From an uncultured Anaerolineales bacterium (GTDB lineage: Bacteria > Chloroflexota > Anaerolineae > CG2-30-64-16), in the NCBI GenBank assembly GCA_964647225.1, contig CAZYHE010000002.1, forward strand, positions 1,655 through 34,787: a stretch of DNA of 33,133 nucleotides, read 5' to 3'. The position numbers and the translations under genes were made by a program. Positions within the stretch are counted from its first letter, which is position 1. The number at the start of each line of letters is the position of its first letter. Below, one piece after another: positions 1 to 24,645 of the stretch. The notes under the pieces were generated by a model that ran no database searches, was not told where the DNA came from, and was given only the letters and a program-made list of their open reading frames with translations.

Positions 1-126
1 GCACAGATCATCGGCGCGTCGCCCGCGCCGCACACCCTCCTCGCGCCCGGCGGTTCAGCCTATTTCTACGCTCAATGGCTGGTCTGGCAGGAGGAACGGC
101 CAATCCCCTCAGGAGATCACGAATGA
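1..126 (+). CDS. 3' end of an unidentified gene entering from the left edge (partial, 41 codons)
   Basis: Frame +1 is open from base 1 to TGA at 124-126 (...[23 protein letters not shown]). The TGA overlaps the ATG at 123 as ATGA, the same coupling seen at 11815-11818, 14127-14130 and 32361-32364. Too short to assign a family. Confidence 0.3.
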   Translation, partial: AQIIGASPAPHTLLAPGGSAYFYAQWLVWQEERPIPSGDHE

Positions 127-1511: not shown

Positions 1512-1576
1512 TTCAGGGCCTTGTGCCCGTCCGTCCGCCCACGAGGGGCTATGCTACAGGTCTGGAGGATGCACCC

Positions 1577-3220: not shown

Positions 3221-3231
3221 GTCCGGAAAGG

Positions 3232-5556: not shown

Positions 5557-5598
5557 GAGGCTAACGGCGGATGGCGCGTGGAAGCAGGGCCGGCCCAT

Positions 5599-7031: not shown

Positions 7032-7042
7032 ATCGCTATGCC

Positions 7043-7741: not shown

Positions 7742-7805
7742 ACACGAATCTCTCTGAAACCCCACTTCGTCATCACGACAGAACGAGGCGATCTTATCAC
7801 AGCAC

Positions 7806-7853
7806 CGCAATATTCTACAAGACACGCGCCGGGCTGTCTTGTAGAATATTGCG
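7806..7853. promoter_or_regulatory. Perfect inverted repeat (19-bp arms, 10-nt GC spacer) in the divergent DUF1638/permease intergenic region; candidate operator and mirror-image promoter pair
   Basis: CGCAATATTCTACAAGACA cgcgccgggc TGTCTTGTAGAATATTGCG. The arms are AT-rich in a GC-rich context. On each strand the palindrome reads AAGACA-17 nt-TAGAAT: plus strand -35 at 7819-7824 and -10 at 7842-7847; minus strand -35 at 7835-7840 and -10 at 7812-7817. Confidence 0.5.
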
Positions 7854-9273: not shown

Positions 9274-10605
9274 TCACCTAGGCAGCCCATGATCGTCGAG
9301 CAACTCCGGGGGGATCTTGTTGATGCGGATTTCCGAGGTTTTGTTGGCATACACCACATATGACTCCCCCGCGATCTCGTAGAACTGCGGATAGCAGATC
9401 TCGGTATCCCGGAACGGGCCGCCCGGCACACGGTCGTTGTACAGGATCACCTTGGGCGCGGCGAAATAAAGCCCGGCATTCTCCGACACGCCCGGCGCCT
9501 CCCGACCCACCGCCACCCACAGCGGATCGCGCGGATACCAGCCCGAGCCCTGGGGCACGACGTTATGGAACAACAACACGAAGCGGCCATCGGCCGTCTT
9601 GTGGATGGGGCACGGTGCGCAGGGCTGCGACAGTGGCTCACCGCCTGGGCAATAGCGCAGCACCTCCGGCGCGGCCCAGGTCCGGCCGCGATCCGCGCTG
9701 ACGCTGAAATAGGGATGGCCCTGCCGGGTGCGGAAGACACACAGCAGACGTCCGCCCGACAGGCCAACCACGGTCGCTTCCTGGCCGAAGTGCCGCGCGG
9801 TCTCTGGATAGGGCACCCAGAGTCCGGTATCCCCTTCCGGCAAGCAGCGAAAACGCAGGTGGGCAGGATCGGTCTCGGTCAGGAGGTTCTCGCACTCCAC
9901 GAGCCACGCTTCCGTCTCCCAGGCGTTGGGGCTGCCGCCCTGGATCGGCTCGGGCGCGTTGGCGGGCGCGTCCACCGGGCGGAGCCAGCGGCCCTCTGCG
10001 TCCAGACACCAGCCGGGCGGGAACAGCGTAGACCGCCGGATCTTGTTGAAGGTGAAGATCACCTGCCCGGTGGGCAGCAGCCGCGGCTGGCCGAAGATCC
10101 AGAGGTGGATGTCGCCTCCGGGATCGTCCACCGCGGTGCGCGGCACCCGCAGCTGGTAGCGCTCCGACCAGGTGTAGCCGTCGTCATCCGAGTAGCGGAA
10201 GAACAGGTCGCCGGCATCACGCAACGGCACGCCGTGGATGTTGTAGCCGTAAAAGGTGTAGACGCGGCCGGTGTTCGGCACGACGAAGATGCTGATCCAG
10301 GCCGGCACGCAGTAGGCGCCGGCAGCCTCTTCGATCGCGATCTCCCCGCTCCAGGTATGACCCCAGTCGCTGCTGCGCGCGATGACCACCCGCTGATCGC
10401 GCTCCGCTTCGTGCGAGCCTTGTGTCCAGACGCAGAGCCAGGCGCCGGATCGGGTGACCGCCAGTTGGGCCTGGTAGTTGAAAGCATAGCGCCCCAGCCC
10501 CGGCAGCTTGACGATGCCGTATGCATCGGTCACGTTCATGGACTTGGGGTGCAGAACGTCCTTGGGCAACGGCCCGGTGGGCGGGGCATTGAAAACGACT
10601 CCCAT
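9274..10605 (-). CDS. BNR/Asp-box repeat beta-propeller, sialidase-like glycosidase (family unresolved)
   Basis: ORF 9274..10641 trimmed to ATG 10605 (AGGAGG at 10615-10620 on the minus strand). Three Asp-boxes (SxDxGxTW): SSDWGHTWS, SDDDGYTWS, SADRGRTWA. No signal peptide by eye. Confidence 0.7.
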   Translation of the reverse strand: MGVVFNAPPTGPLPKDVLHPKSMNVTDAYGIVKLPGLGRYAFNYQAQLAVTRSGAWLCVWTQGSHEAERDQRVVIARSSDWGHTWSGEIAIEEAAGAYCVPAWISIFVVPNTGRVYTFYGYNIHGVPLRDAGDLFFRYSDDDGYTWSERYQLRVPRTAVDDPGGDIHLWIFGQPRLLPTGQVIFTFNKIRRSTLFPPGWCLDAEGRWLRPVDAPANAPEPIQGGSPNAWETEAWLVECENLLTETDPAHLRFRCLPEGDTGLWVPYPETARHFGQEATVVGLSGGRLLCVFRTRQGHPYFSVSADRGRTWAAPEVLRYCPGGEPLSQPCAPCPIHKTADGRFVLLFHNVVPQGSGWYPRDPLWVAVGREAPGVSENAGLYFAAPKVILYNDRVPGGPFRDTEICYPQFYEIAGESYVVYANKTSEIRINKIPPELLDDHGLPR

Positions 10606-10618
10606 GTGCGACGACCTC

Positions 10619-11818
10619 CTATTCAGAGCTGCGTATTTCATCCACGGCTTCCACCATCGCCGCGAAGTTCTCGGGCGGGATCGGCGGGTTGATCTCGCTG
10701 GACGTGTCTATGAAGATGCCGCCGCGCTGGAGGGCGTCCGGCTCCCGGATGATGCGGTGGACCTCGTGGCGCACCTGTTCGGGCGTGCCGCGCTCCATCA
10801 GATCCACGCCGTCCACCCCGCCGGCCCAGGTGTGCTGAGGCCACGCCCGGCGCAGCGCGACGATGTCCATCCCCAGCGCCGGCTCCAGGCAATAGAAGCC
10901 GTCCACCCCGCAAGCGACCAGGTCGGGGATCACCTGCTGCCAGTTCCCATCGCTGTGGTAAAGCACCTTCAGCCCGTAGTCGTGCCAGGCCGCGGTCAGG
11001 CGGCGCACGTGCGGGAACAGCTCGCGGCGCAGGAATGCCGGGCTGAAGATCGGCCCGCCCTTCGACGCAAAATCCTCCGCGATCAGCACCACGGGCGTGA
11101 GCGCCGGGTCGGCGATGGCGTGCAGCCGGGCAAGCTCGCAGTCGGTGTAAGCGCCGATGTAGCCGGAGATGACTTCCGGCCAGGCGTCATACAGATAGAT
11201 GAAGGTGTCCAGCCCCAGCCGATACCAGCACTCACAGAACCCAGTCTGGATCGAGAAGTCCACGATGACCGTCTCGCCGATCAGCTTCTGCAGGCCGGTC
11301 ATGTAGCGCCGGTAGTTCTCGCGCTCCTGATCGGCGTCGAAGCTCGCCTGTGCCTCGCGCGCAACCGGGACGATGCCCGGCGGGTAGCCGTAGCCGCCGC
11401 GACGGCCCAACCGCCGCATCCGTTCGGTCTTGCGCAACAGGAAGTCACGCGCACCCGCCAGGTCAGCGAACGGCCGGCGGACGATCATCGAGTGCCAGTT
11501 GTCCTGCTGGATCAGGAAGCCGTCGGCGTCCACGATCTGGCGGACGCCCAACGGCGCGACGGGCGGGAAGCAGGCATCCAGCGTCCGGCGGATGGTCGCG
11601 CAGATGTCCGCGTAGCTGTAGTCGAAGTCGCGGATCCTCTTGCCGGTGTAGCGGGCGATGACGCCGGGATTGTAGCTCAACTGCTCGTGGAGCACGGCGC
11701 GATCCACCGGCTGGTTTGCCAGCGTCCGCTCGACGCGCGCGCGTTTCGAGAGGCGATCGGCCGGAAAGAGCTTCTCGAATGACCCGTCCTGAGCGCAGTC
11801 GAAGGAATCACCGCTCAT
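10619..11818 (-). CDS. Uroporphyrinogen decarboxylase (URO-D)/MtaA-like TIM-barrel family protein, function unknown
   Basis: ORF 10619..12049 trimmed to ATG 11818, which overlaps the GH42 stop as ATGA. The C-terminal half GLKVLYHSDGNWQQVIPDLVACGVDGFYCLEP...GTPEQVRHEV resembles URO-D_like proteins. The N-terminal tail carries a family-A repeat copy (SFDCAQDGS). Confidence 0.6.
   Translation of the reverse strand: MSGDSFDCAQDGSFEKLFPADRLSKRARVERTLANQPVDRAVLHEQLSYNPGVIARYTGKRIRDFDYSYADICATIRRTLDACFPPVAPLGVRQIVDADGFLIQQDNWHSMIVRRPFADLAGARDFLLRKTERMRRLGRRGGYGYPPGIVPVAREAQASFDADQERENYRRYMTGLQKLIGETVIVDFSIQTGFCECWYRLGLDTFIYLYDAWPEVISGYIGAYTDCELARLHAIADPALTPVVLIAEDFASKGGPIFSPAFLRRELFPHVRRLTAAWHDYGLKVLYHSDGNWQQVIPDLVACGVDGFYCLEPALGMDIVALRRAWPQHTWAGGVDGVDLMERGTPEQVRHEVHRIIREPDALQRGGIFIDTSSEINPPIPPENFAAMVEAVDEIRSSE
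11786..11805. repeat. Family-A repeat copy (CTGAGC-N-GTCGAAGG unit) inside the URO-D-like gene
   Basis: GTCCTGAGCGCAGTCGAAGG, translated on the minus strand as SFDCAQDG. Confidence 0.7.
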
Positions 11819-14130
11819 CGTTCCACCACCAGCGCGGCCACATCCAGGCTCTTGACCGTGAGCACGACCTGATCCCCACGCCGCTCGAACGGCTCGCCAA
11901 GCAGGCCCCGGACCTCCCGATAGCCCGCCACATCCACCGACTCGCTGATCTTCTCCGGCGTGGGGTTCGTGAAGAGCCAGGCTTCCCGGTCTCCAGCGAT
12001 CCGCTTGCGTAGGAGCAGCCGACCGGTGTGTTCCGGCAGCACACCGCACTCAGCCAGCAGCACCCGCACCGCCGCCCGCGTTTCTGCATCCCGGTACGCC
12101 GTGCCGTTGTGCCCGACGTAGGTGCCCAGGAGCCAGGCCCGGCCCTTGCCCGCCCACCGAACTGTGCCGGCAGTCGTGGACGCCACGACGGCATCGCCAT
12201 GGCGCAGCAGCGGCTCACAGCCGTCCCCTCCGCGCCCTGAGCCTGTCGAAGGGCCTGCGCTCGGCGAAGGATCGAAAGTCTGGAGGTAAACATTCGCCCG
12301 TATCCGGTGTCCGGCCAGCGGCCCCGCGCCCTCCAGCATGATCGCATCCACGTATTCGCCCCAGGTACGCTCCGGCGGCGACCAGCGCGGCAGGCTGCCC
12401 GGCTCGCGCACCATCGTAAAGCTGCGCTGCGTGACCCCGAACAGGTCGGCCAGGGTTGGCGACAACTCGCCCCGGCGGCAGAAGCCGTGCTCGTCAATGC
12501 GGCCCGGCGCGGCCTCGCTAATCAGGTTGCCGCCGGCCTCGACGTAGCGCGCCAACTCACGCGCTACCTCCTCGGACAGGCTCAGTGGGAAGGGCAGGAT
12601 CAATGCCCGGTAGTCGCCGACGTGCGCTTCGTCCAGTTGGGAGGCTTCGACGAAATCAACCGGGATATTCAGCTCCCACAGCAGCCGATACCACCCGCGC
12701 ACGCTGTAGGCCAGGTGCTCGTGGCCCTGCGCCATCAGTTGGGTGAGCTGGTAGTTCCACTCATCAACCAGGATCGCGACCTGCGCCCAGGGCCGCGTGG
12801 GTTGGCCGAACAGGTCGGGATATTGGTTCAGCGCGTTCCCGATCCGAGCGGCCTCCGCATAGCGCGGGGCGCTGTCGCCCGCGCTGTCCAGCAGGCTGAA
12901 GCCGTTCGCCTCGGCCACGTGGATCTCGGCGCGCGTCACCCAGAACGAAAGCGCGGTGATCCCCGCGCCGACCGCGGTCAGCATCCACCGGCGCATGTCG
13001 GCGGGATCGGGCACGCGGCCCTTGTGGAAGCCGGTGCTCACCGGCCCGCCCTGGAATTCGGCCGCCCAGACCGGGTTTCCCCCCTTCGACGTGCCCTTCG
13101 ATAAGCTCAGGGTGCTGCTCAGGGCGGCGCGGCGGTTGCACGAGCGGATATAGTCGAAGCGCAGCGCCACACCGTCGGCCAACTCGGCCAGGAGGCACGC
13201 GTGGCGCGGCAGCGGTTCGCCAGCCGCAGGGCGGCCGTCGTCCCAGGGCTGGAGCGAGTTCCACGCGGGGTAGCACGATGAGCCGAGGAAATCCTGGCAG
13301 CGGGCATAGGTCCAGTCCTGCCCCGCGCCAATGATGGGCGCGCCCTTGTGCGCAAAGACCGGCCGGCCGAGCGGGTCCGCCTCCCGGATGGCTCCGGCGC
13401 GGGCGCGCAGCACATTGGCGATCTGGACGTTGTCCATGAAGTAGTGCCAGTCAATGTTCCCCGGCTGCGGGTAGCGCACCATCGCCAGCCGGTCGGGCGT
13501 CACCGACTCCCAGTCGCCATAGCGGGTGTTCCAGGCCCGGTTCAGCCCCTCCAGGTCGCCGTAGCGCGCCCGCAGCCACGCCCGGAACGCGGCGAGCGTG
13601 TTCGCGCAATAGCAGACGGGCTGGCCGGCGAACCGCTCGGCCCAGTAGCCGATCTCCTGCCAGGTGTTCCAGCAAACGATGTTCTCGAAGCGGCCCAACG
13701 TCCGCACCAGTTCCCGGATGAAGCGCAGTTGGTCCGCCAGCGCGCCCGGATCGTCGAAGCAGGGGCCGGGCTTGCCGTCGGCCGGGAGGGTGGTCTGCGC
13801 CTCGTAGGCGATGGGCAGGCCGTTGCGGCCGACCATCCGGCAGCCGGGATGCTTGCGCCACAGCCAGGGGGGCGCCTGCTCGCACGTCAGCCCCAGGTAG
13901 ATGCCCAGGTCGAGCCGGGCGGCGTGCTCGATGAGTTCCTCATAGCGCGAGAAGTCGTAGCGTCCTTCCACCGGCTCGTCAATGGCCCAGTGCTCCTGGA
14001 GCTTGATCAGGTTGAAGCCGTGGCGCTTGAGGTTTTCCATGTCCCGCTTGAGTTCGGACATGGGCGGCATTGGCTCGCGGCACAGGTGCGAGCCGATGGG
14101 AAAAAGCTCACCGAAACGTTCGACGTTCAT
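11815..14130 (-). CDS. GH42 beta-galactosidase
   Basis: ORF 11815..14175 trimmed to ATG 14130 (ATGA overlap with the upstream stop). Motifs: KRDMENLKRHGFNLIKL, WAIDEPVEGRYDF, CWNTWQEIGYW. A trimerisation-type middle region and a C-terminal domain are present. Carries two family-A repeat copies. Confidence 0.85.
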   Translation of the reverse strand: MNVERFGELFPIGSHLCREPMPPMSELKRDMENLKRHGFNLIKLQEHWAIDEPVEGRYDFSRYEELIEHAARLDLGIYLGLTCEQAPPWLWRKHPGCRMVGRNGLPIAYEAQTTLPADGKPGPCFDDPGALADQLRFIRELVRTLGRFENIVCWNTWQEIGYWAERFAGQPVCYCANTLAAFRAWLRARYGDLEGLNRAWNTRYGDWESVTPDRLAMVRYPQPGNIDWHYFMDNVQIANVLRARAGAIREADPLGRPVFAHKGAPIIGAGQDWTYARCQDFLGSSCYPAWNSLQPWDDGRPAAGEPLPRHACLLAELADGVALRFDYIRSCNRRAALSSTLSLSKGTSKGGNPVWAAEFQGGPVSTGFHKGRVPDPADMRRWMLTAVGAGITALSFWVTRAEIHVAEANGFSLLDSAGDSAPRYAEAARIGNALNQYPDLFGQPTRPWAQVAILVDEWNYQLTQLMAQGHEHLAYSVRGWYRLLWELNIPVDFVEASQLDEAHVGDYRALILPFPLSLSEEVARELARYVEAGGNLISEAAPGRIDEHGFCRRGELSPTLADLFGVTQRSFTMVREPGSLPRWSPPERTWGEYVDAIMLEGAGPLAGHRIRANVYLQTFDPSPSAGPSTGSGRGGDGCEPLLRHGDAVVASTTAGTVRWAGKGRAWLLGTYVGHNGTAYRDAETRAAVRVLLAECGVLPEHTGRLLLRKRIAGDREAWLFTNPTPEKISESVDVAGYREVRGLLGEPFERRGDQVVLTVKSLDVAALVVER
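12234..12270. repeat. Family-A repeat copy plus a degenerate second unit inside GH42
   Basis: GCCCTGAGCCTGTCGAAGGGC followed by CTGCGCTCGGCGAAGG, translated as ...SAGPSTGSGRG. Confidence 0.65.
13082..13125. repeat. Family-A repeat copy in opposite orientation, with both halves duplicated, inside GH42
   Basis: CCCTTCGAC gtg CCCTTCGATAAGCTCAGGG tgctGCTCAGGGC, translated as ALSSTLSLSKGTSKGG just upstream of the AAEFQGG segment. Confidence 0.7.
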
Positions 14131-15362
14131 CGCATCTCCTTCCAGGCCGAGATCATGGCTTCGACGCTCGACCACGGCGTGTCCGGGAAGAGCGCGTCCA
14201 CGGGCGCAAGGATGAAGCCGGCAGGCCCGAGTGTCGTCAGCGCGTGGCGCACCGCCGCCCGGATTTCATCTGCCGATCCGCTCGCCAGCGTGACGCCGCT
14301 GTTGATCCCGCCCGCGAGGGCCATCCGCCCGCCGAGTTTCGCTTTGACCGCGGCAAGATCGGCCTTGTCCTGCACCGGGTCGGCGTAGTAGAGCACGTCC
14401 ACGCCGGCCGCCAGCAGGTGGTCGGCCATCGCCAGGACGCCGGTCGTCATGGTGTACCCGAACCGGGCGCCGGCCTGATGCGCCATCCGCACGAGGCCGG
14501 CCAACGGCGGCAACAGGAAGCGCTCGAAGAGCCGCGGCGACCAGAAGTCGGTTGAGCTGTACCAACCGCGCTGCATGACCACATCCACACCGCCCACATC
14601 GAGCATCAGCTCCGTGCGGCGCCGGTCGAACGCCGAGACGATTCCCATCAGCTCACCGAAGAAGGCAGGCGCTTGTTTCGCGGCCAGCACAGCCGCCTCG
14701 ACCCCCATCAGCCACACGACCAGATCCATGCCGAACGCGCTCCAGCCCGCCACGGGCACCCCCTCGGCGTCGGCGAAGCGGCGCACGGCGGCCATGCGCG
14801 CACGGTAGGCGGACAGTTGCTCGGCAGTCGGGTCGCACAGCAGGTAGCGCAGCTTCGGCAGGTCATCCGGCCCGACCACCGCATGCCGCACCCCGCGCGG
14901 GATGTTGAAGTCCTCGATCAGCGGGACGTGGTCGGGCTGCACCACCCAGCCGGGCGGCGTCTCCTCGGCGGTGCGGCGCACGATGTGGCGCAGCGGGCCG
15001 GCCGGCGTGTCGTATTCCCGACCGAGCAAGGCGTAAGGCTGGCCGGGGGTTGGCGGTTCCTGCCAATCTCGCACGCGGACGTCCGGGTGGACGCTCCACG
15101 GCGGCGAGACCTCGATCACGTCGTCCACGCCCAGTCGGCGCCAGGCGCGCACCCGCTCGAAATCATCTTCGGGCAGGCGCCACGGCTCTGGGAGGGTGTG
15201 GATGTGTTCCAGGCGACCGGTGAACCAATGGGTCACGGCCCGGCCATCGCGCGTCCACGTCAGGTGTGCGGGCGGCGCGAAGCCGAAACACCAGCAGGTG
15301 AGCGGGACGTGGTCGGGCCGCCCGCCGCGGATGGCGGTCAGGAGGCATTCTCGTGAATTCAT
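14127..15362 (-). CDS. URO-D/MtaA-like TIM-barrel family protein, paralogue of 10619..11818, function unknown
   Basis: ORF 14127..15509 trimmed to ATG 15362 (GGAGG about 6 nt upstream). Strings: ECLLTAIRGGRPDHVP; ...GYTMTTGVLAMADHLLAAGVDVLYYADP...GSADEIRAAVRHAL. The layout parallels the other URO-D-like ORF. Confidence 0.55.
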   Translation of the reverse strand: MNSRECLLTAIRGGRPDHVPLTCWCFGFAPPAHLTWTRDGRAVTHWFTGRLEHIHTLPEPWRLPEDDFERVRAWRRLGVDDVIEVSPPWSVHPDVRVRDWQEPPTPGQPYALLGREYDTPAGPLRHIVRRTAEETPPGWVVQPDHVPLIEDFNIPRGVRHAVVGPDDLPKLRYLLCDPTAEQLSAYRARMAAVRRFADAEGVPVAGWSAFGMDLVVWLMGVEAAVLAAKQAPAFFGELMGIVSAFDRRRTELMLDVGGVDVVMQRGWYSSTDFWSPRLFERFLLPPLAGLVRMAHQAGARFGYTMTTGVLAMADHLLAAGVDVLYYADPVQDKADLAAVKAKLGGRMALAGGINSGVTLASGSADEIRAAVRHALTTLGPAGFILAPVDALFPDTPWSSVEAMISAWKEMR

Positions 15363-15429
15363 GGGACCTCCGAATGAATTCGGGGCGAAGGGGCGTTCCG
15401 CCACGAGGTCGGCCTGCGCCGACCGAATT

Positions 15430-15453
15430 GGGCGTCCATGCAGATGGACGCCC
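15430..15453 (-). other. GC-rich stem-loop (10-bp stem, 4-nt loop) in the 140-nt gap after the isomerase gene
   Basis: GGGCGTCCAT gcag ATGGACGCCC. A second hairpin GGTCGG cctgcg CCGACC lies at 15407-15424, and a palindrome CCGAATgaATTCGG at 15370-15383. No U-tract follows, so the function (terminator, processing or stability element) is unresolved. Confidence 0.35.
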
Positions 15454-15502
15454 GGCGCCGCAGCGCCCATCAGATGCGATTTCAATCGCCCAAACCGATG
15501 CA

Positions 15503-16843
15503 TTAACAACCGACCATCCCCGCCAAATCAGCCAGCGGCTGCCGCAGGTCGCCGTATGCCGCCATCCAATGGTGGCCCAACCCCTCGCGGGCGATCCAGC
15601 CGAAGATCGCCCGGTAGTCTTCCCGGAACCGCACGCGCAGCGGATTGCCAGGAAAGACCATCTCGGTGGCGATGGCCTCGCCGTGCAGGGCGGCCATGCG
15701 ATAGCCGTTCAGACCCGGCACGATGTTGAGCAGCGTCACCGGGCCGGGGCGGGCGGGGAAGAGGCAGCACAGGCCGCGATCCATCAAGCGCACCGGCCCC
15801 AATGTGATCTCTGCCGGGTTTGCGGCCAGGGAGAAGCCGCCGGAGCCGCAATGCGAGAAGACGATGGCGTTCTCGGCCGGGATCGGATCCAGGAGGTCGG
15901 TGTTGTGCACCGGCTGGCCGGTCAGCCTTGTCAGCAGCAACATGCCGAGCGCCGCGTTGATGTCCCCTTCGCACGCCACCGGGATCCCCGCCTCCCCCAA
16001 CAGCGACGCGGCCAGGCAGACCTCGCCCATCAGGTGCGGGTAACAGCCGATGGACACCGCCGAAAGGCCCAGTTCCGCGACCGTGGCGCGCAGGGCATGG
16101 GCCACCTGCAGCGACGCGATGCCGGCATCCGCCGTCGCCGTCACCCGGCCGACCTGCCCGCCGAGCGCCTGCCAATCGGACGCCAGCGGGAGCACGTCCA
16201 CCTGCGCGGCCCGCTCCAGGAAGACTTTCGTGTCCAGCCCGACCACGCGCGGCCCGAAGGTGCGTTTGAGCGCCAGCTCGTGGACGGTGGTCTCGGTCAT
16301 CCCCTCGACGCGATGGCCCAGGTGGCCGATGCGCGCCCGCCGGAGTTGGCGCGCCAGGCTCGCCGCGGCGGCGAACTCCCGCGCCCGCCGCAACCCGGTC
16401 GCTGAGCCTGTCGAAGCGTCAACCAGCCCTTCGACAAGCTCAGGGCGCGGTTCATCGAACAGGAAAACGTAGGGCCGGCCAAGCTGCTTGAGCATGAAAC
16501 ACAACTGCTGCATCCCGCACAGCGCGCCGGTCTCCATGCCGGGACGCGCCCAGGCGACGACTGGGACGGGGCACTCTTCCAGCAGATCGAGCACCAGGTA
16601 ATCCTCGAACCAGGACGCGGCGATGGCGATCACGGCGTCAACGCGCTGGTCGTAGAACGCGCGGCCCGCGGCCACGGCCGCGTCCGGGGTGGTCACAACC
16701 ATGCAGCCGGCGATCTCGATCGGCGGCGAGCCTGGGGCGCGGAACGCCACTTCCAGGCGCGCCAGCAGCGCCGGCGCGTCCCCCGCGCCCACTTCCAGCG
16801 GGCTGGCAACGGCGATCAGGCCGAGACGGATGGGTTGGGACAT
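15503..16843 (-). CDS. L-fucose/L-arabinose isomerase-like sugar isomerase family protein
   Basis: ATG 16843 with AGGAG 6 nt upstream. Motifs: SIGCYPHLMG, PVACEGDINAALGMLLL, FSHCGSGG and a C-terminal domain typical of FucI/AraA-like isomerases. Contains a complete hairpin copy of the family-A repeat. Confidence 0.65.
   Translation of the reverse strand: MSQPIRLGLIAVASPLEVGAGDAPALLARLEVAFRAPGSPPIEIAGCMVVTTPDAAVAAGRAFYDQRVDAVIAIAASWFEDYLVLDLLEECPVPVVAWARPGMETGALCGMQQLCFMLKQLGRPYVFLFDEPRPELVEGLVDASTGSATGLRRAREFAAAASLARQLRRARIGHLGHRVEGMTETTVHELALKRTFGPRVVGLDTKVFLERAAQVDVLPLASDWQALGGQVGRVTATADAGIASLQVAHALRATVAELGLSAVSIGCYPHLMGEVCLAASLLGEAGIPVACEGDINAALGMLLLTRLTGQPVHNTDLLDPIPAENAIVFSHCGSGGFSLAANPAEITLGPVRLMDRGLCCLFPARPGPVTLLNIVPGLNGYRMAALHGEAIATEMVFPGNPLRVRFREDYRAIFGWIAREGLGHHWMAAYGDLRQPLADLAGMVGC
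16401..16446. repeat. Complete family-A element (both orientations, hairpin-forming) inside the isomerase gene
   Basis: GCTGAGCCTGTCGAAGcg tcaaccag cCCTTCGACAAGCTCAGGGC. The arms are complementary with one mismatch. Translated as PELVEGLVDASTGSA. Confidence 0.75.
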
Positions 16844-16852
16844 GAGCGGCTC

Positions 16853-18250: not shown

Positions 18251-18253
18251 GGC

Positions 18254-20041
18254 TCACTCCATTCCCCGGTAGATCTCTCTCAGCGCGGCGTAGGCTTGCT
18301 TGCGTTCCCGGTTGTACCCCACGATCCCCTTCAGGTTCAGCCCCGCCCAATAGCTGGTGACATGCTTCGACGGGTCGGGGTAGTCCTGGTAGAGGAACGG
18401 GAACGCGCCGCAGACGTTGGGCGCCGAGCGGAGCACCTCATAGGTCCGCTGCAAGAAGTAGGTCTGGTAGTCCTCCGACCAGAGCGCGCGGTCGGCCGCA
18501 CGGTAGCCGGGCACGGCATCCGCGCCGAACTCGGTCAGGAGGAGCGGCTGGCGGTAGGTTTGCGACTTGGCGGCCAGTTCCTGTTCGAGCCGGGAGAGAT
18601 CCAGCGCGGCGACCTCGACCGTGCGCGCGCCGTCGGCACCCTCGCCGATCTCCCGCAGCAGGGGCCGATCCTTGCCCGGCGCCGCGTTCACCCGGTCGTA
18701 CCAGCCCCAATACTCGTTGACGCCGATGACATCGGGCAACTCGCCCACCTGGCCCATCGTACCGTACAGCGAAGCGTAGCTCAGCAGGCGCGTGGTGTCG
18801 AGGCCGCGGATCGTCTCGGCCAGGCCCGCGAAGAAGGCGGGCGCTTCCGGGTGCGCGACCTTGCACTCGTTGCCCAGGCTCCAAAGGATGATGCTCGGAT
18901 GGTTGTACGCCGTCTGCACCATCTCCCGCAGCATGGCCGCGGCCAGGTCGCGGTAAGCCGGCTGGCTGAATGCGCTGCCGGACGCTTCGTGTGGGTCCAG
19001 GCAGTAGATGGGCACCTCCGACCACACCAGCAACCCGCGGCGGTCGCACTCGGCCAGCATCCGCTCGTGGAGGGGCACGTGGCAGCGGATGGCATTGACC
19101 CCCAGTTCCGCCATGTCGTCCAGGTCGGCGCGCGCGATCCGCTCGTCGTAGGTGATGCCGACCGCCGGATGATCCTCCAGGTAGCAGATGCCCTTCAGCC
19201 AGATCGGCTCGTCGTTGACCAGGATCGTCGCGCCCTCGGTGCGCACCCGGCGGATGCCGAAGGCGGTCGTCACCCGATCCAACACCGCGCCGGCGGGGTC
19301 GAGCAGGCTGGTCTCCAGCGTGTAGAGCGCGGGGGACGCCGGACTCCACGGCTGCGCGGCGGGCAATCGCCAGGGGCAGGCCAACTCGCGCACGCTGCCG
19401 CCCCCGATCATCGTCTCGTCACGCCAGACCTCCTGCCCGGCCGGGTCACGCAGGAGGAGCGCAGCGCGCAGCGGCCGGTCGTCACGCGCCGTCACGCGCA
19501 GCCGGACCTGGCCCTCGGCGCCGGGGCCGGACGGCACGCCATCCACCCCCACCCAATCCAGCCGGCCGCCGCACGCCACTTCGAGCGTCACATCGCGGTG
19601 GATGCCGCCGTAGGTGCACCGGCCCGGGCAGGCCGGCAGCAGGATGCGGTGGCGGCGGTTATCGACGCGCACCGCCAGCGTGTTCTCGCCCGCGTGCAGC
19701 AGGTGGCTGACATCGAGCGTGAACTCGGTGTAGCCGCCCGCGTGTTCGCCGGCCAGTTGGCCATTGACGAAGACTTCGGCCGCGTAGTTGATCGCGCCGA
19801 AGCGCAGCACGCCGACCGCCTCCGGCGACCACTCCCCCAGAGAGAACGAGCGGGCGAACCAGGCGACGCCTTCGTAGATGCGATAGCGTTCGGCGTACAG
19901 GTTCCAGCAGCCGGGCACGGGCACGACCTCCCAGTGCCGCCGGTCCCAGCCGGGCTGTGCGTACTCCGCGCCGGGATGGTATTGCGGCTCCAACTCCGGC
20001 AGGAAGCGCCAGAAACCGTTCAGTTCGATGATTTTTCGCAT
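18254..20041 (-). CDS. GH2 glycoside hydrolase (beta-galactosidase / beta-mannosidase / beta-glucuronidase family)
   Basis: ORF 18254..20302 trimmed to ATG 20041. Motifs: LNGFWRF...WEVVPVPGCW, VNGQLAGEHAGGYTEFTLDVS, NAIRCHVPLHERMLAECDRRGLLVWSE, acid/base ILWSLGNE and nucleophile LLLTEFG. Confidence 0.85.
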   Translation of the reverse strand: MRKIIELNGFWRFLPELEPQYHPGAEYAQPGWDRRHWEVVPVPGCWNLYAERYRIYEGVAWFARSFSLGEWSPEAVGVLRFGAINYAAEVFVNGQLAGEHAGGYTEFTLDVSHLLHAGENTLAVRVDNRRHRILLPACPGRCTYGGIHRDVTLEVACGGRLDWVGVDGVPSGPGAEGQVRLRVTARDDRPLRAALLLRDPAGQEVWRDETMIGGGSVRELACPWRLPAAQPWSPASPALYTLETSLLDPAGAVLDRVTTAFGIRRVRTEGATILVNDEPIWLKGICYLEDHPAVGITYDERIARADLDDMAELGVNAIRCHVPLHERMLAECDRRGLLVWSEVPIYCLDPHEASGSAFSQPAYRDLAAAMLREMVQTAYNHPSIILWSLGNECKVAHPEAPAFFAGLAETIRGLDTTRLLSYASLYGTMGQVGELPDVIGVNEYWGWYDRVNAAPGKDRPLLREIGEGADGARTVEVAALDLSRLEQELAAKSQTYRQPLLLTEFGADAVPGYRAADRALWSEDYQTYFLQRTYEVLRSAPNVCGAFPFLYQDYPDPSKHVTSYWAGLNLKGIVGYNRERKQAYAALREIYRGME

Positions 20042-21204
20042 GGGGTATCTCCAGATCGGCCCCGCCAGAATTGCATGCCGGGGCATTCGCAGAATTGCCA
20101 CGCCACCTCGCCGACCGGCGAATCGGGCCACGCCTGGGCCAGGATCGCCAGGCAGAGCGTGCGGAACCAGGTGGGGAACATCGCCGAGACATCCGGGCCG
20201 GAAGCCATGAGCGGGTGGCCGTAGGCGAAGGGCTGCCCGCGCATGAAGACGAAGCCGCCGTCGGGGTTCTGATTGGACAGCACCCACGGCAGCGCCCGGC
20301 ACAGCGCGGCCCGGATTTCGTCCCCGCGGTGCGGCGTCACCGTGGAGAGCCGCGCCAGCGGGTCAATGGAGTCAATGTCCTCGCATGCGCTCGAATTCCA
20401 CGGGTCGCGGCGGTTGTGGACATCCCAACCGAAGCCCCCGCGCGGATTCTGCGTGCGCAGCACGGTGTCAATCGCCCGTTCGGGGTAGGGCACCGGCACG
20501 TGGTCATAGAAAAAGAGCGGCCAGAAGTGATAGGCCGCCTGCACCTCGTCGGACAAATTGAGCGGGGCGGCCAGATCCTTGTAGCCCCACACCCCCGCGG
20601 CCGCGTCCAGGTGATGGCTTGCCAGCCAGGCCAACAGCCGGCGCATGGCATCCCCGGCCTGAGGGTGTCCCTGGAAGTCGCGCGCGTATTGCAACAGCGT
20701 GCCGACGTTCATCACCTCGTTCCCGGCGAAGGCGGGCGCGTCCCGCCAGGCGCGCTGCGCCAGCCACTCCTCGACCCCGCCGGGCGCGATGAAGGGGTCG
20801 AGCCAGGTCTGCGGCTTCTCGGCTGTCGCGCCCAGGCAGGTGAGGGCCGTGACCACGTGACACGACAGGTGCCGCCGGCCGCACCATTCCGGGTCATCCT
20901 TGTACCACCCCTCGCCGTAGATGGCCGGATCACGGAACAGGCCGTCGTCATCCTGGTGCGCCTGGAGATAGGCGATCCACGCGCGCCGATCGCGGTCGCC
21001 CAGCCCGTCCAGCTCGCCGAACAGGTGGCGCGTCATCGCGGCATAGGCCGAGGCATAGAGCACCGGCTCCGCCATGCCTTCTGCGTAGAGGTAGCGGCCG
21101 TAGGGTTCCCCTGGGGCGCGCATCCGCTCGACGTACGCGAGGGTGGCATCGCGCAGACGCGCGGCTTCTGCGGTCAGGGTACGTTGGGTAGCTTCGGTGG
21201 GCAT
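20020..21204 (-). CDS. Alpha/alpha-toroid protein with prenyltransferase / squalene-cyclase-like repeats, function unknown
   Basis: ATG 21204 (GGAG upstream); GTG 21216 is the alternative. Repeat-like strings: HQDDDGLF, QNPRGGFGW, QNPDGGFVF. The 3' end overlaps the GH2 start by 22 nt. Confidence 0.55.
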   Translation of the reverse strand: MPTEATQRTLTAEAARLRDATLAYVERMRAPGEPYGRYLYAEGMAEPVLYASAYAAMTRHLFGELDGLGDRDRRAWIAYLQAHQDDDGLFRDPAIYGEGWYKDDPEWCGRRHLSCHVVTALTCLGATAEKPQTWLDPFIAPGGVEEWLAQRAWRDAPAFAGNEVMNVGTLLQYARDFQGHPQAGDAMRRLLAWLASHHLDAAAGVWGYKDLAAPLNLSDEVQAAYHFWPLFFYDHVPVPYPERAIDTVLRTQNPRGGFGWDVHNRRDPWNSSACEDIDSIDPLARLSTVTPHRGDEIRAALCRALPWVLSNQNPDGGFVFMRGQPFAYGHPLMASGPDVSAMFPTWFRTLCLAILAQAWPDSPVGEVAWQFCECPGMQFWRGRSGDTPCEKSSN

Positions 21205-21261
21205 GGTTGGCTCCACTTCATCAATTGTAGGAACACAGATGCAATGGGGGAAGTCGCTCCC

Positions 21262-21290
21262 CGTATATCATTCTCCGCCCGCATTGTCAA
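21262..21290 (-). promoter_or_regulatory. Candidate sigma-70-type promoter between GH38 and the downstream genes
   Basis: The minus strand reads TTGACA (21290-21285), then a 17-nt spacer ending in TGA, then TATACG (21267-21262). It lies in a comparatively AT-rich 96-nt gap. Confidence 0.35.
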
Positions 21291-21300
21291 ACAGCGGGGC

Positions 21301-24300
21301 CTACGCACTTGGGCTTCCGCAGGTCGCCAGCAGACCGGTAGCAGGAAACCGCCGCGCCCCGCGACAGCGCACCGTCGTCAGCCCGTGGGCCGCGAGGGAC
21401 GCCTCGAAGGTGTGTGGCGTGCAAGGCAGCCGCGCCTGGTCTTCTTCCACCAGGTTAGTCTGCCACGCCTCGCCGATGTCGAAGTATGGCAGGCGCACGA
21501 TCGCCCGCAGATCCTCGCCCGCGGTCTCGGCCAGACGCAGGATGAGGCCGTCCCCATCCTCCGCGGCCTTCAACGTGAGCAGCACGACGCCGGGCGCGTC
21601 CACGCCGCAAAATGTATCGGATGCCGGCAGCGGGCCGTCCTGTGGGCCGATCACGTAGGCGGTCACGGGGCAGACGGCCGCCTCCCAGCCGAGGGCGCGC
21701 GACCGGGCGCGCTCGTGCTGGCCGTCGTGCGTGGTGATCGCGTAGCGGAAGAGCGCATCGGTCGCCTGCACGGGCTGGAAGTTGGTGCGGAAGTTGTTGT
21801 TCATCACATAGGAGTAGATGTGCCCGTGCCGCAGTTCCTCGGGGGCGCGCAGGAACGCGTGCCCATAGCCGGGCGGGGTGACGCCGTGGTGGGCTTGCGA
21901 GACGTAGCCGGGCCACAGGCCGCCCAGTTCAACGATGGGCGCTTCGAGGCTGCTCCACGCGACCCCGCCGGCCCGGTCGTGCATGCTCACCCAGTGCTGG
22001 ACGGCGTAGGCGTCGGTGTTGGTGCCCGGCAACTGGTCGCGGATCGGCTCGATCACCGCGTTGCTGGCCTCGTAGGCGAAATGGGGATCGTCAAGGGCGA
22101 AGGGGAAGGCCAGGTGCAGTTCGAGCAGCGGCGTGGCATCGCGCAGGATGCGCGTCGCCAGCTCGATCCGCTTCACCCCCTCGAAGAGCGTGATCTCCTG
22201 GGTGATCTGCGGGCAGCCGTGCGCGCTGCTGCGCACGATTAGGCTCGCCGCCACCGGCCCCGCGCTGCCGCGGCGCAGAGCGACGGCGCCAGTGAGGGGA
22301 TCGCCTCTGATGCTTGACTCCTGCCCCCTGACTCCTGCATCCTGACCCCTGGCCCCTGGTGGCTCAACGCCCGTGCGCGGATCGCGGACCACCAGTTGGT
22401 TGAACGGGTGCGGCGCGTGGGCGTCCACCCACTCCCGGCCAAGCTCCTTGTCGAAAATGCTGCGGATCGCACCGGTGGCCGGATCGAGCGCGACCCGGTA
22501 GAAGCGGTTCTCCAGCCAATCCTCGCCGATCCGCAGGCTGCTCGCGAACTCGGGCCAGCGGTCGCAGGGCTTGTCCTGAGCACCGCCGAAGGGCTTGTCC
22601 TGAGCAGTGTCGCAGGGCTTGCCCTGAGCGCCGTCGCAGGGCTTGTCCTGAGCAGTGTCGAAGGGCCGGAGGCGGTAGGCGCGATAGCCGAGCGGTGGGA
22701 GGTCATGGGCCAGGAAAACAAGCTCGCACAGATGGCTCCGCTGGTAGTTGAGCGCGGGATGGCTGTGGGCGTCGGTGTGGCCGAGCGCGTAGTGCTGCGC
22801 GGCCCAGGGTTGCGCAGCCAGCGGGTCGTCCAGGATGTTGACCTGGCACGGGACGACCGCGCCGGTCGCCACGTCTACCAGTTCGACTTGTCCTGAGCAC
22901 CGCCGAAGGGAGGGACGCTCCAACAGCTCGGCCGGCAGGCTGACCCACGGCCGGCCGAGGATCGAGCTGGACACGCGCTGCGCGGGCGCGCCGGGCTGGC
23001 TGCCCGGCCGCCAGTAGAACGGCCGGCTGGCCGGCTCGGCCGCGCTGGCGCGCGCCCGTACGATGGCGTCGCGCGGCCAGTTCAGCGGGTTGAAGACGAC
23101 CAGGTGATAGCCGTCATCTGGCAGCCGGACCTGGTCGGCGATGCGGTGGGCGCTCTTGGTGAGGACATCGTGCGCCAGGGCCGCGCCGCGATAGGCAAGC
23201 TCGCCCTTCTGGCTCCAGCACGCATCCTGGGCCGGCCCGATCGGTTGGGCCATGCCCCAGGTGTGCTCGTCGTAGAGCAGCGCGCAGTCGTAGGCTTCGG
23301 CCAGCGTATCGGCCGGATAGATATAGTCGCTAACCGAAGCGGCGCATGCAGCCAGCTTCTCGGCCGAGCCGAGCAGGTCGTGGGTCAGGCGGTTGACGCC
23401 GGTCTCGCGGGGCGTGCTGATCGCGCCGACCGTGTAGTCGGTGTTCGGGAGGTCGCCGCGCAGCACGGGCAGGCGGTCGCCGGCGGCCCGCTCGAATTGC
23501 TCGAAGAACGCCGTGTTGGTGGAGACGATCAGCCGGGGATAGGCCCAGCGGTCGTTCCATTCGCAGGCGATCCGGCTGAGCCGGACGTCCGGCGGCGCGT
23601 TGTCGCGGTTGGCACCGTGGAACTTCACCCGAACCAGGTCGTGCGGATAGCCGCCCTCGGTCAGCCCGGCGAGGTAGCGCGCGAGGTTGGTCTCGGCCTG
23701 GTCGCAGGTCCACAGCCCCGGCCCGCTGATGGTGCCGCCCGCATACCAGAAGAGCACCCGCTGCCCGTCCGGCCCTTCCCACCAGAACGCGCCGGGCAGC
23801 TTGCGCGGCAGGATCGCCTGCTCGTCCCAGTGCGGATGTACGGTCATGCCCCAGGCGAAGTAGTCGGGGATGCCCGCCGCGAAGTAGCGCACGCCGGCGC
23901 CGGCCAGCACGCTCGCCAGCCCCCAGGAGACACCGGGGATGTCGTTCAGTTCGGCGGAGCGGATGGGGACACCGAAGCGCCGGGCAAGAGCGAACGCGGG
24001 ATAGAGCAGCCGCACCTGCTCCTCGTGCCCGCACAGTTCGCTCGTCTCGTTGCCCAGCAGGGCGGTCAGCTCGATGCGCCCCGCGCGCAGCCAGCGCGCC
24101 AACCGCTCGACGGTCTCAGGCGGCCGGTGTTGGACGTAATGCTGCACCGACCACGCCTGCTCGATCACATAGCGGAAGCGGGCTTCCTCCGGCCAGTCGG
24201 CCGTCTCGTCGCAGCCATCCAGGACGGCATCCAGAAAGGTGTCGTGCTCGCGTAGAACGTTGCTGGGCAGGTCGGTGTAGCCCAGGTCGTGGTGCGAGCC

Positions 24301-24645
24301 ATGCACCAGGTGGACCTGCCACCGCCGCGTGGGCTGCCAGGCCAGTTCCAGCCGGTCGAGCAGCGTCTCCCCGGCCAGGAGACTGAACGTCACGGGGCCG
24401 CTTTCGGCGATTGCGGGGATGAAGACGCGCTGGCGGTTGACGCCCGCGGCGACCGGATCCAGGCGCACCTCCATGCGCTGGCCGGCGAAGGTCACAACCA
24501 CCGCCAGCGTGTCGGCTCCGCGCTCGCAGGAGAGGGTGATGTCCACGGCTTGCTGGAGGCCCGTATTTGTCTGCCGGAAAAACGGCGTCGGCTGGACGGC
24601 GGTCAGGCGACACGCCAGCCGGCCTGCTGGGTCAAGATCATTCAT
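21301..24645 (-). CDS. GH38 alpha-mannosidase family protein
   Basis: ATG 24645 with GGGAGGG upstream. It has a GH38 N-terminal metal-site motif VHLVHGSHHDLGYTD, then LGNETSELCGHEE, and long middle and C-terminal domains. Carries a 24-bp tandem array, a lone 24-mer and a heptamer array. Confidence 0.85.
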   Translation of the reverse strand: MNDLDPAGRLACRLTAVQPTPFFRQTNTGLQQAVDITLSCERGADTLAVVVTFAGQRMEVRLDPVAAGVNRQRVFIPAIAESGPVTFSLLAGETLLDRLELAWQPTRRWQVHLVHGSHHDLGYTDLPSNVLREHDTFLDAVLDGCDETADWPEEARFRYVIEQAWSVQHYVQHRPPETVERLARWLRAGRIELTALLGNETSELCGHEEQVRLLYPAFALARRFGVPIRSAELNDIPGVSWGLASVLAGAGVRYFAAGIPDYFAWGMTVHPHWDEQAILPRKLPGAFWWEGPDGQRVLFWYAGGTISGPGLWTCDQAETNLARYLAGLTEGGYPHDLVRVKFHGANRDNAPPDVRLSRIACEWNDRWAYPRLIVSTNTAFFEQFERAAGDRLPVLRGDLPNTDYTVGAISTPRETGVNRLTHDLLGSAEKLAACAASVSDYIYPADTLAEAYDCALLYDEHTWGMAQPIGPAQDACWSQKGELAYRGAALAHDVLTKSAHRIADQVRLPDDGYHLVVFNPLNWPRDAIVRARASAAEPASRPFYWRPGSQPGAPAQRVSSSILGRPWVSLPAELLERPSLRRCSGQVELVDVATGAVVPCQVNILDDPLAAQPWAAQHYALGHTDAHSHPALNYQRSHLCELVFLAHDLPPLGYRAYRLRPFDTAQDKPCDGAQGKPCDTAQDKPFGGAQDKPCDRWPEFASSLRIGEDWLENRFYRVALDPATGAIRSIFDKELGREWVDAHAPHPFNQLVVRDPRTGVEPPGARGQDAGVRGQESSIRGDPLTGAVALRRGSAGPVAASLIVRSSAHGCPQITQEITLFEGVKRIELATRILRDATPLLELHLAFPFALDDPHFAYEASNAVIEPIRDQLPGTNTDAYAVQHWVSMHDRAGGVAWSSLEAPIVELGGLWPGYVSQAHHGVTPPGYGHAFLRAPEELRHGHIYSYVMNNNFRTNFQPVQATDALFRYAITTHDGQHERARSRALGWEAAVCPVTAYVIGPQDGPLPASDTFCGVDAPGVVLLTLKAAEDGDGLILRLAETAGEDLRAIVRLPYFDIGEAWQTNLVEEDQARLPCTPHTFEASLAAHGLTTVRCRGARRFPATGLLATCGSPSA
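22315..22356. repeat. Heptanucleotide tandem array (6 units, TGNNYCC) inside GH38
   Basis: TGACTCC TGCCCCC TGACTCC TGCATCC TGACCCC TGGCCCC, translated as GARGQDAGVRGQES (7-aa periodicity). Confidence 0.75.
22561..22666. repeat. Tandem array of 4.4 family-A 24-bp units inside GH38
   Basis: Units: GTCGCAGGGCTTGTCCTGAGCACC / GCCGAAGGGCTTGTCCTGAGCAGT / GTCGCAGGGCTTGCCCTGAGCGCC / GTCGCAGGGCTTGTCCTGAGCAGT / GTCGAAGGGC. Translated as PFDTAQDKPCDGAQGKPCDTAQDKPFGGAQDKPCD. Confidence 0.85.
22887..22910. repeat. Lone family-A 24-mer inside GH38, identical to 22570-22593 but read in another frame
   Basis: CTTGTCCTGAGCACCGCCGAAGGG is identical at both sites. Here it is translated SLRRCSGQ; in the array it reads PFGGAQDK. 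Confidence 0.85.

Follow-up and report, generated by a model that had tools for sequence, protein, structure and literature searches.

A nine-gene glycosidase cluster from an uncultured Anaerolineales bacterium sets four conserved protein families beside recognisable glycosidases

Glycan-degrading loci are the main route of complex-carbon turnover by Chloroflexota, Acidobacteriota, Planctomycetota, Verrucomicrobiota and their kin in soils, sediments, sludge and sponges, and many of the conserved genes in such loci lack a known role. The closest described systems are Gram-positive-type and cytoplasmic glycan operons, for instance those for xanthan, N-glycans or mannosides, in which an ABC importer is encoded with a cytoplasmic enzyme of glycoside hydrolase (GH) family 38, and the polysaccharide utilisation loci of Bacteroidota. 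We analysed a 33,133-nt stretch of DNA from an uncultured Anaerolineales bacterium of the Chloroflexota (assembly GCA_964647225.1, contig CAZYHE010000002.1, positions 1,655 to 34,787), hereafter the window. Nine genes on its minus strand (9274-24645) resemble these systems in their packed, co-directional exo-glycosidases (GH38, GH2 and GH42), which in the described cases act after import. In order, the genes encode a GH38 protein, an orphan (alpha/alpha)6 toroid, a GH2 protein, a GH32-like protein, a FucI/AraA/SftI-superfamily isomerase-like protein (ISO), a first protein of the uroporphyrinogen decarboxylase (URO-D) fold (UD1), a GH42 protein, a second URO-D-fold protein (UD2) and a BNR sialidase-like propeller. 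The GH32-like and BNR genes were found only in the window's own contigs while the other seven are kept in relatives, and the cluster is therefore a conserved seven-gene core with two lineage-specific additions. It is a compact case of the wider problem, with four families lacking a known role (ISO, UD1, UD2 and the toroid) in one operon-like unit with recognisable glycosidases.

A scan for ISO, limited to one genome per species, recovered 80 loci (L008-L087) from Chloroflexota, Acidobacteriota, Planctomycetota, Poribacteria, Armatimonadota, Lentisphaerota, Verrucomicrobiota, Hydrogenedentota, Latescibacterota, Spirochaetota and WS1. All 80 came from metagenome-assembled genomes (MAGs), and no cultured isolate appeared. 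The window proteins were mapped on 83 loci, in which open reading frames (ORFs) were called by simple clustering; 40 loci were evaluable, having at least 3 kb on either side of ISO, and a neighbour was defined as a gene on the same strand within 4 kb. By this measure ISO, the anchor of the conserved module, has UD1 as a neighbour in 27 of the 40 evaluable loci, a DegT-family aminotransferase in 20 and GH38 in 11. Across all 83 loci, UD1 orthologues (45-72% identity) occur in 53, almost always directly adjoining ISO, and ISO and UD1 form the tightest pair. GH38 orthologues (39-77% identity) adjoin the ISO/URO-D pair in 21 loci, while GH42 is found in 10, UD2 in 18, GH2 in 6 and the toroid in 4.

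The close relative L091, whose ISO is 84% identical, has the order GH38-toroid-GH2-ISO-UD1-GH42-UD2, which is that of the window without the GH32-like and BNR genes. Subsets of the core recur in varying orders in Armatimonadota (toroid-GH38-UD2-UD1-GH2-ISO in L054), Verrucomicrobiota (GH2-UD1...ISO-toroid-UD2 in L062), Acidobacteriota, Planctomycetota, Lentisphaerota and a SusC/D locus of Bacteroidota. The last of these, from Mangrovibacterium (L092), reads SusC-SusD-GH95-x-GH39-toroid-GH2-x-UD2-MFS-GH2, with a UD2 orthologue 49% identical to that of the window. Cross-matching the 564- and 610-aa neighbours in L092, the 640-aa neighbour in L006 and the BNR-like neighbour in L093 to the window proteins gave no links. 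All told, the four non-GH families recur beside the same glycosidases, in varying order, across more than ten phyla. The first-pass annotation, made from the sequence alone, had proposed that the nine genes belong together, a proposal that depended on their being neighbours in relatives, as seven of the nine are. The comparison shows that the non-glycosidase core genes are the most faithfully conserved neighbours, partners and not passengers.

The two genes outside the core both encode propellers. The GH32-like gene (16853-18250, minus strand as for all cluster genes; 465 aa, five-bladed propeller) matches PF00251 (Glyco_hydro_32N) at 85.6 bits against a cut-off of 22.1, over profile positions 15-198 of 307, and its similarity to PDB GH32 entries (5e-14) is confined to the N-terminal half. 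Its translation shows the D (GDCMP), RDP and EC motifs; the Pfam search gave no Glyco_hydro_32C match for a C-terminal beta-sandwich, and a precomputed record has only a faint GH43-related hit. The BNR protein (9274-10605; 443 aa), encoded by the last gene of the cluster, matches PF13088 (BNR_2) at 55.5 bits against 31.4 and has three Asp-box-like SxDxGxTW motifs. No FRIP/RIP motif was seen in the N-terminal region of its translation, no NCBIfam model matched it, and its best PDB match, sialidase 8um0, reaches only 3e-5 over about 100 residues, well short of a close likeness to characterised sialidases. Neither gene turned up in any other fetched locus with the threshold relaxed to E = 0.01, and L091, the closest full-length relative, lacks both, which shows them to be additions in this lineage only. 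The picture of sialidase action and complex-glycan trimming that had been drawn for this cluster depended on the BNR gene and is not supported.

The nine genes are tightly packed. At about 68% G+C the window is rich in spurious ORFs, and we picked start codons where a GGAG-type Shine-Dalgarno sequence precedes. With these starts the junctions run, in order, as a 96-nt gap, a 22-nt overlap, gaps of 3, 9 and 140 nt, two ATGA overlaps and a 13-nt gap. These lengths reproduce exactly those of the first-pass annotation, whose nine genes, order and strand were likewise confirmed by the ORFs and their Pfam domains. Inside the 96-nt GH38/toroid spacer lies a promoter-like TTGACA-17 nt-TATACG (21262-21290, minus strand), so that the candidate promoter placed there exists only as a pattern match; a scan for consensus promoters and terminators did not call it, the last base of the -10 hexamer not being T. 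That scan was uninformative as a whole: 1.5 promoter-like sites were expected and 1 was called, outside the spacers. The stem-loops noted in the 140-nt ISO/UD1 spacer (15363-15502) were recovered by folding as several hairpins (-71.3 kcal/mol, z = -2.96). A long spacer also separates ISO and UD1 in relatives (172 and 231 nt), and in two close relatives the spacer sequence is unconserved apart from the ribosome-binding site. With no Rfam match and a sequence that relatives do not share, the spacer was rejected as a conserved RNA element or riboswitch.

None of the nine proteins has a signal-peptide-like hydrophobic N-terminus, as had been reported, or a membrane-like segment, and Pfam found no transporter or kinase domain among them. 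Operon-like packing and a cytoplasmic location thus both hold. The lack of a transporter stands for the nine-gene cluster and fails as a general trait, since relatives embed ABC, TonB or SusC/D importers. In L095 the order is DegT, ISO, a xylose-isomerase-like gene, a solute-binding protein, two permeases, GH38 and UD1, with a divergent ROK gene; in L097 it is GH38, a solute-binding protein, two permeases, two URO-D genes, ISO and UD1. Acidobacteriota loci carry a TonB-type outer-membrane receptor and a GntR regulator with GH38 or an MGH1-like hydrolase, then DegT-ISO-UD1. An importer and a regulator encoded with the glycosidases, the mark of utilisation loci, are absent from the window cluster and present in L095, L097, L092, L006 and L009. 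With importers inside the clusters of relatives, an imported oligosaccharide is the likely substrate, and the analogy supports import followed by cytoplasmic breakdown.

The three core glycosidases belong to well-populated families. The GH38 gene (21301-24645; 1114 aa), the first of the cluster, starts at an ATG after GGGAGGG and contains in-frame repeat insertions. Its product matches the Glyco_hydro_38N, 38C and 38C2 domains above cut-off (PF01074, 53 bits against 25; PF07748, 49.3 against 25; PF17677, 42 against 22) and no NCBIfam model; we predict an alpha-mannosidase-family enzyme. The GH42 gene (11815-14130; 771 aa), which has ATGA overlaps with both URO-D genes, matches PF02449 at 121.1 bits (cut-off 21) and the trimerisation domain 42M, PF08532, at 75.6 (cut-off 25.8). 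GH42 beta-galactosidases in the PDB match it, with 9ta3 the best (1e-26), and orthologues 60-73% identical occur in Chloroflexota, Armatimonadota, Lentisphaerota and a MAG named Candidatus Zipacnadum. A GlmA-type exo-glucosaminidase was considered and set aside, with GLMA_2nd at 2.7e-5 and 5gsl at 7e-5 against 1e-26 for a true GH42.

The GH2 gene (18254-20041; 595 aa) encodes five Pfam domains above cut-off, covering sugar-binding, Ig-like and TIM-barrel parts. Its best NCBIfam match is the beta-glucuronidase (GUS) model NF007538, at 243.9 bits against a cut-off of 544 and so below equivalog level, and its closest PDB relatives are the Bacteroides uniformis GUS 6d1n/6d89 (1e-60) and the galacturonidases 6ncw and 7vqm. 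WSLGNE, with the NE acid/base, and LTEFG, with the nucleophile Glu, align with the catalytic positions of 6d1n/6d89; NEYWGWY aligns with the PDB relatives, and LNLKG aligns with FNRKG of the B. uniformis enzyme, keeping the N-x-K motif, which we take to be the one that recognises the uronate carboxylate. The protein is thus like the gut GH2 glucuronidases and galacturonidases in its catalytic Glu pair, NEYWGWY and N-x-K, and differs in sharing only about 35% identity with them, an estimate over the alignment columns shown, and in its 244 bits against 544. On these similarities it is of the uronidase (GUS) type, not of the LacZ/beta-galactosidase type. The family assignments made at first sight hold against Pfam and NCBIfam profiles with this one correction of subtype, and the cluster does not hold the two beta-galactosidase-type enzymes it had been credited with.

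Upstream of GH2 and overlapping its start by 22 nt at its own 3' end, the toroid gene (20020-21204; 394 aa) has as its sole sequence match a weak SQHop_cyclase_C, below the Pfam cut-off. The AlphaFold2 model (mean confidence, pLDDT, 93.5) is all-helical, a six-hairpin (alpha/alpha)6 barrel. Foldseek searches of the PDB with it gave a probability of 1.0 and E of 1e-6 to 1e-3, at TM-scores of 0.46-0.53, root-mean-square deviations of 7-9 A and 11-18% identity. The nearest folds, which share the same overall barrel, are single-domain squalene-hopene-cyclase-like proteins (8paj), the rhamnose-glucuronate lyase of polysaccharide lyase (PL) family 27 (5noa), the GH88 unsaturated glucuronyl hydrolase (4q88), GH76 enzymes and sugar 2-epimerases acting on N-acylglucosamine or cellobiose. 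Uronate-containing glycans are substrates of several of these six-hairpin enzymes, and the partner to which the toroid is coupled is a uronidase; the toroid differs from them in a TM-score of at most 0.53 and in matching no Pfam family at cut-off. At least 1098 homologues were detected, 53-65% identical across phyla and, where named, nearly all 'hypothetical'; in other phyla they adjoin GH2 or GH39. By sequence and by model the protein appears to fit no known GH, PL or epimerase family. It is probably a glycosidase-, lyase- or epimerase-like enzyme that acts, coupled to the uronidase, on a uronate-containing part of the substrate.

The ISO gene (15503-16843; 446 aa) gives no Pfam match. It aligns over its full length with the NCBIfam sulfoquinovose isomerase model SftI (NF048012; 3e-32), at 111.9 bits against a cut-off of 700. 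Against L-arabinose isomerase 7cx7 a profile of the family reaches E = 0.011; EGD and HH line up, the second AraA Glu does not, and one homologue gives weak Pfam matches to Fucose_iso_N1 and Arabinose_Iso_C. The earlier FucI/AraA-like label therefore appears correct at superfamily level. A total of 921 homologues were detected; the best 120 of the 921 are 61-86% identical, the named ones being from Chloroflexota and Acidobacteriota. ISO shows a distant likeness to the metal-dependent aldose-ketose isomerases, to SftI over its full length and to AraA in EGD/HH, and differs from SftI, AraA and FucI in falling far under every family cut-off, with no Pfam match or solved structure. It appears to be a separate family, with 42-86% identity between phyla and a distinct gene neighbourhood. 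We commit to ISO as a predicted aldose-ketose isomerase for the released monosaccharide.

Clues to that monosaccharide come from the partners of ISO and UD1 elsewhere. Their DegT-family partner is closest to KdnA (5k8b; 1.3e-87, full-length), nucleotide-sugar aminotransferases matching at 3e-52 or weaker. KdnA is the 8-amino-3,8-dideoxy-manno-octulosonate transaminase, whose substrate is the free acidic sugar 8-oxo-Kdo. The likeness belongs to a partner in other genomes and not to a window gene, and the context of that partner is catabolic-looking, unlike Kdo8N biosynthesis. In the Acidobacteriota loci, DegT-ISO-UD1 is followed by an enolase-superfamily acid-sugar dehydratase, a short-chain dehydrogenase/reductase (SDR) and EamA. 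DegT, xylose-isomerase-like, MttB-like and glucose-fructose oxidoreductase (GFO) genes were sought in the window and none was found; because the KdnA-like aminotransferase, a frequent partner of ISO and the URO-D genes, is absent from it, the window is a partial version of a wider system. The KdnA-like partner, the likeness to SftI, which acts on a 6-sulfonated hexose, the GUS-type GH2 and the acid-sugar dehydratases hint, through distant links, that the module processes an acidic or C6-modified sugar.

Other gene sets accompany the module in particular lineages. Two Planctomycetota loci (L043, 6826-13989; L049, 7478-13972) read DegT(KdnA-like)-UD1-ISO, an MttB-family methyltransferase homologue and a Cys/Met-metabolism pyridoxal-phosphate enzyme, without glycosidases, and in related loci of the Planctomycetota-Verrucomicrobiota-Chlamydiota (PVC) group a helix-turn-helix-cupin regulator often precedes the DegT-UD1-ISO cluster. 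In the Poribacteria loci L048, L050, L052 and L059, ISO is paired with DegT without UD1, so the ISO-DegT pair can work without a URO-D protein; around the pair in L050, the one locus annotated, lie an SDR, a GMC oxidoreductase, a PhyH-type dioxygenase, a zinc dehydrogenase and ThuA. A relative represented by three independent assemblies (L001-L003) has, upstream of toroid-GH2-ISO (locus positions 1-6746), GH95, three more URO-D paralogues, a PfkB kinase, a small SIS-domain protein and a ribulose-phosphate-3-epimerase-like protein. The PfkB, SIS and epimerase-like set is possibly the downstream phosphorylation and isomerisation route that is missing from the window.

We lean modestly toward a reading of the locus as a cytoplasmic, operon-like system for the last stage in the breakdown of imported hetero-oligosaccharides. 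An importer encoded elsewhere in the genome, and inside the cluster in relatives, would deliver an oligosaccharide to the cytoplasm, where GH38, GH2 and GH42 would trim its ends of mannosyl, uronosyl and galactosyl residues. With its gene coupled in translation to that of the uronidase, the toroid would probably act on the uronate-containing part, and ISO would convert a released aldose to a ketose, the likeliest aldoses being mannose and hexoses with an acidic or other modification at C6. As a single substrate we considered xanthan-like exopolysaccharide, arabinogalactan-protein, mannosylglycerate, Kdo/KDN-type acids and amino sugars, and none was supported enough to claim.

Several observations weigh against this reading. 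The cluster itself contains no transporter, kinase or regulator, and two or three transcription units would be compatible with its 96- and 140-nt gaps. The GH38, GH42 and GH2 proteins all fall short of NCBIfam equivalog cut-offs, we infer every enzyme activity from family membership, and the acidic-sugar idea draws on distant similarities (SftI, 112 bits against 700). With UD1 split and UD2 truncated in L001-L003, the URO-D genes are dispensable in that relative. Modules also occur apart, ISO-UD1-DegT without a glycosidase in many Planctomycetota and Poribacteria and GH39-toroid alone in a Rhodopirellula MAG, and one shared substrate is therefore not proven.

These separate occurrences also favour an account in which the cluster is a mosaic glycosidase island, its modules (ISO-UD1, GH42-UD2, toroid-GH2, GH38, GH32-like and BNR) being independent, directed at different substrates and accreted on one strand with no single pathway. 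The addition of the GH32-like and BNR genes in this lineage only, the gene orders that vary between phyla and the two larger gaps, which could hold internal promoters, point the same way. Against it, a set of toroid, GH2, UD1, UD2, ISO and GH38 and/or GH42 re-assembles in at least four phyla in differing orders, which would be hard without a functional link, and the ATGA overlaps and the 22-nt overlap indicate translational coupling across module boundaries. We consider such a mosaic unlikely, though it has more in its favour than the other alternatives below.

UD1 (14127-15362; 411 aa) matches the URO-D Pfam domain PF01208 at 57.9 bits against 23.9, and UD2 (10619-11818; 399 aa) matches it at 49.7 bits against the same cut-off, in its C-terminal part. 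The two are remote paralogues (hhalign probability 98%, 20% identity). An AlphaFold2 model of UD1, built with database homologues (pLDDT 90.1), has as its best structural match the methyltransferase MtaA (4ay7; Foldseek E = 2e-13, TM-score 0.60/0.71), also superposes on UroD and contains an extra beta-rich insert. The zinc ligand set H-x-C...(E)...C of MtaA/MetE was not found in the alignments of either protein. The H-x-C (H-I-C) motif of MtaA aligns to M-T-T in UD1, which has D328 and D389 at the other two ligand positions in the register of the UD1/UD2 alignment; UD2 has H288-S-D290, E312 and E375 at the zinc-ligand positions, all invariant or nearly so. UD1 and UD2 are thus like the UroD superfamily (UroD and the zinc methyltransferases MtaA/MetE) in their TIM-barrel fold and URO-D Pfam matches above cut-off, and differ from it in M-T-T/D/D for UD1 and H-x-D/E/E for UD2 and in a context of glycosidases, not haem synthesis or methylotrophy.

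In all three assemblies of L001-L003 (locus positions 11555-12756 and 14960-15589), UD1 is represented by two ORFs (293 and 103/119 aa) and UD2 by 209 aa, while ISO, GH2, the toroid and GH42 are intact; the URO-D genes appear to be decaying there.

A haem-pathway URO-D (HemE) was rejected for UD1 and UD2, only the C-terminal third aligning (profile 272-408, E = 1e-4) and the neighbours all being glycosidases. Another alternative is that the two are O-demethylases for methylated sugars such as 4-O-methyl-glucuronate, methyl-mannose or methyl-galactose, one per glycosidase, with ISO processing the demethylated sugar. Methyl-glucuronate is a common cap, and the GH2 protein is a uronidase. Several URO-D paralogues each adjoin a different glycosidase (GH95, GH42, GH38 or GH2), and MttB-family methyltransferase homologues adjoin the module in 6 loci. 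Methyl and alkyl transferases, O-demethylases among them, dominate the UroD superfamily (PMC10418091), and there is a marginal match to CdmB (9rui). Set against these points is the replacement of the zinc ligands in both UD1 and UD2. A crude scan for the corrinoid-protein motif (DxHxxG...SxL...GG) over all ORFs of the 83 loci gave only 2 scattered, inconsistent matches, none in the window, and neither an activating enzyme nor a pterin-binding methyltransferase is among the conserved neighbour families identified. Many of the host organisms are, we presume, aerobes, which also counts against demethylation of this kind. A keyword search for sugar demethylation gave only P450 sugar demethylases and a paper on an MtaA-like cluster without sugars, DUF1638 or Chloroflexota. 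With the ligands replaced and no corrinoid partner found, a zinc/corrinoid methyltransferase is disfavoured, and we give the O-demethylase explanation little credence.

Under the cytoplasmic-breakdown reading, UD1 and UD2, with Thr/Asp and His/Asp/Glu/Glu respectively in place of zinc-thiolate ligands, would each handle a sugar or decoration beyond the reach of classical glycosidases, and each would be paired with a glycosidase or with ISO. On present alignments we take both to be sugar-acting enzymes, not methyltransferases or haem enzymes, and commit to them as putative sugar-acting TIM barrels paired with ISO/GH38 and with GH42.

Immediately upstream of the cluster, on the same strand, a 944-aa multi-pass membrane protein (24688-27522, start codon uncertain) ends 42 nt before GH38; its YfhO and PTPS matches are both below cut-off. 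It may be co-transcribed with the cluster and is not a conserved member of it. It is improbable that the locus serves to recycle, from within the cell, glycans of the organism's own envelope or sheath: that idea would explain the window cluster's lack of a transporter and gains from this YfhO-like, GT-C-type neighbour and from the YfhO, GT2 and GH114 genes near the cluster in L095, but ABC importers, TonB receptors or SusC/D are embedded in the clusters of relatives, no YfhO-like gene lies upstream of GH38 in L091, and the spread over many phyla with different envelopes argues for a shared external substrate.

The sole nearby permease is of the APC amino-acid type and lies downstream on the opposite strand, converging on the cluster; beyond it are an AraC-family regulator and a DUF1638 protein (6168-7825, minus strand), with no link to the cluster in other loci. 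An OpgC-esterase fusion and an IlvD/EDD-family dehydratase adjoin the cluster both in the window (1523-5556) and in L001-L003 (15562-19675), and three Poribacteria loci have an IlvD homologue some 10 kb downstream of ISO; the IlvD/EDD neighbour may be a coincidence or a sugar-acid dehydratase. Upstream of the membrane-protein gene are a sulfatase with the C-x-P-x-R maturation motif and no signal peptide (28819-30207) and a type I phosphodiesterase-like protein (27402-28301), and four PVC/Latescibacterota loci also have sulfatases at most 10 kb from ISO. Further out, the window encodes TsaD and a zinc dehydrogenase.

Repeats occur inside several coding sequences of the window. The GC-rich mini-repeat CTTGTCCTGAGCRCCRTCGAAGGG (plus strand, encoding ..FD[T/C/G]AQDKP..) is inserted in frame in GH38 (22561-22680 and 22878-22925), in the membrane protein (24802-24849) and at the N-terminus of UD2 (~11774-11818), with four tandem 24-nt units in GH38; it looks like a dispersed mini-repeat tolerated in protein loops. 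In-frame simple-sequence arrays also occur in the membrane protein (26638-26707 and 26721-26784) and in GH38 (22295-22358). A 7-nt unit, ACGATGT, repeated ten times gives TSYIVH-type peptide repeats, and 14-nt units of the CCTGCCC / TGACTCC type are common to two different genes.

As a broader proposal, which we hold tentatively and at somewhat less than even confidence, ISO, UD1, UD2 and the toroid would be four new carbohydrate-active families in an undescribed pathway, spread over more than 10 phyla, for a modified monosaccharide (acidic, amino or decorated) beyond the reach of ordinary glycosidases and known catabolic routes, with ISO and UD1 often accompanied by the KdnA-like transaminase and a branch of UroD recruited to sugar chemistry from methyl transfer or decarboxylation. 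A keyword search of open full text gave nothing relevant linking URO-D-like proteins to sugar loci, and the suggestion of the first-pass annotation that the route is undescribed remains reasonable. Its overall interpretation stood in its families, packing, location and synteny; the second beta-galactosidase and the sialidase-trimming picture were not supported, and the lack of a transporter is a trait of this window only.

Each of the orphan families has about 1000 or more detected homologues, and the PDB contains no close relative for any of ISO, UD1, UD2 or the toroid. The comparative data assign partners, ISO with UD1, GH42 with UD2 and the toroid with GH2 or GH39, and mark the lineage-specific extras, so that a 'hypothetical protein' problem becomes a short list of testable enzyme pairs. 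New CAZy families might come of these, or a new catabolic route for a uronate, an amino sugar or a decorated sugar. All 80 species genomes in which the ISO family was detected are MAGs, which will hamper experimental work. Compared with the xanthan, N-glycan and mannoside operons and with the polysaccharide utilisation loci of Bacteroidota, the window cluster differs in having no importer, regulator or kinase and in its ISO, UD1, UD2 and toroid genes, whose families have no described role in those systems. Of its seven conserved genes, four come from families whose function our keyword searches of the open literature did not find described, set among the exo-glycosidases that these systems share, and in kind it is a glycan-utilisation operon.

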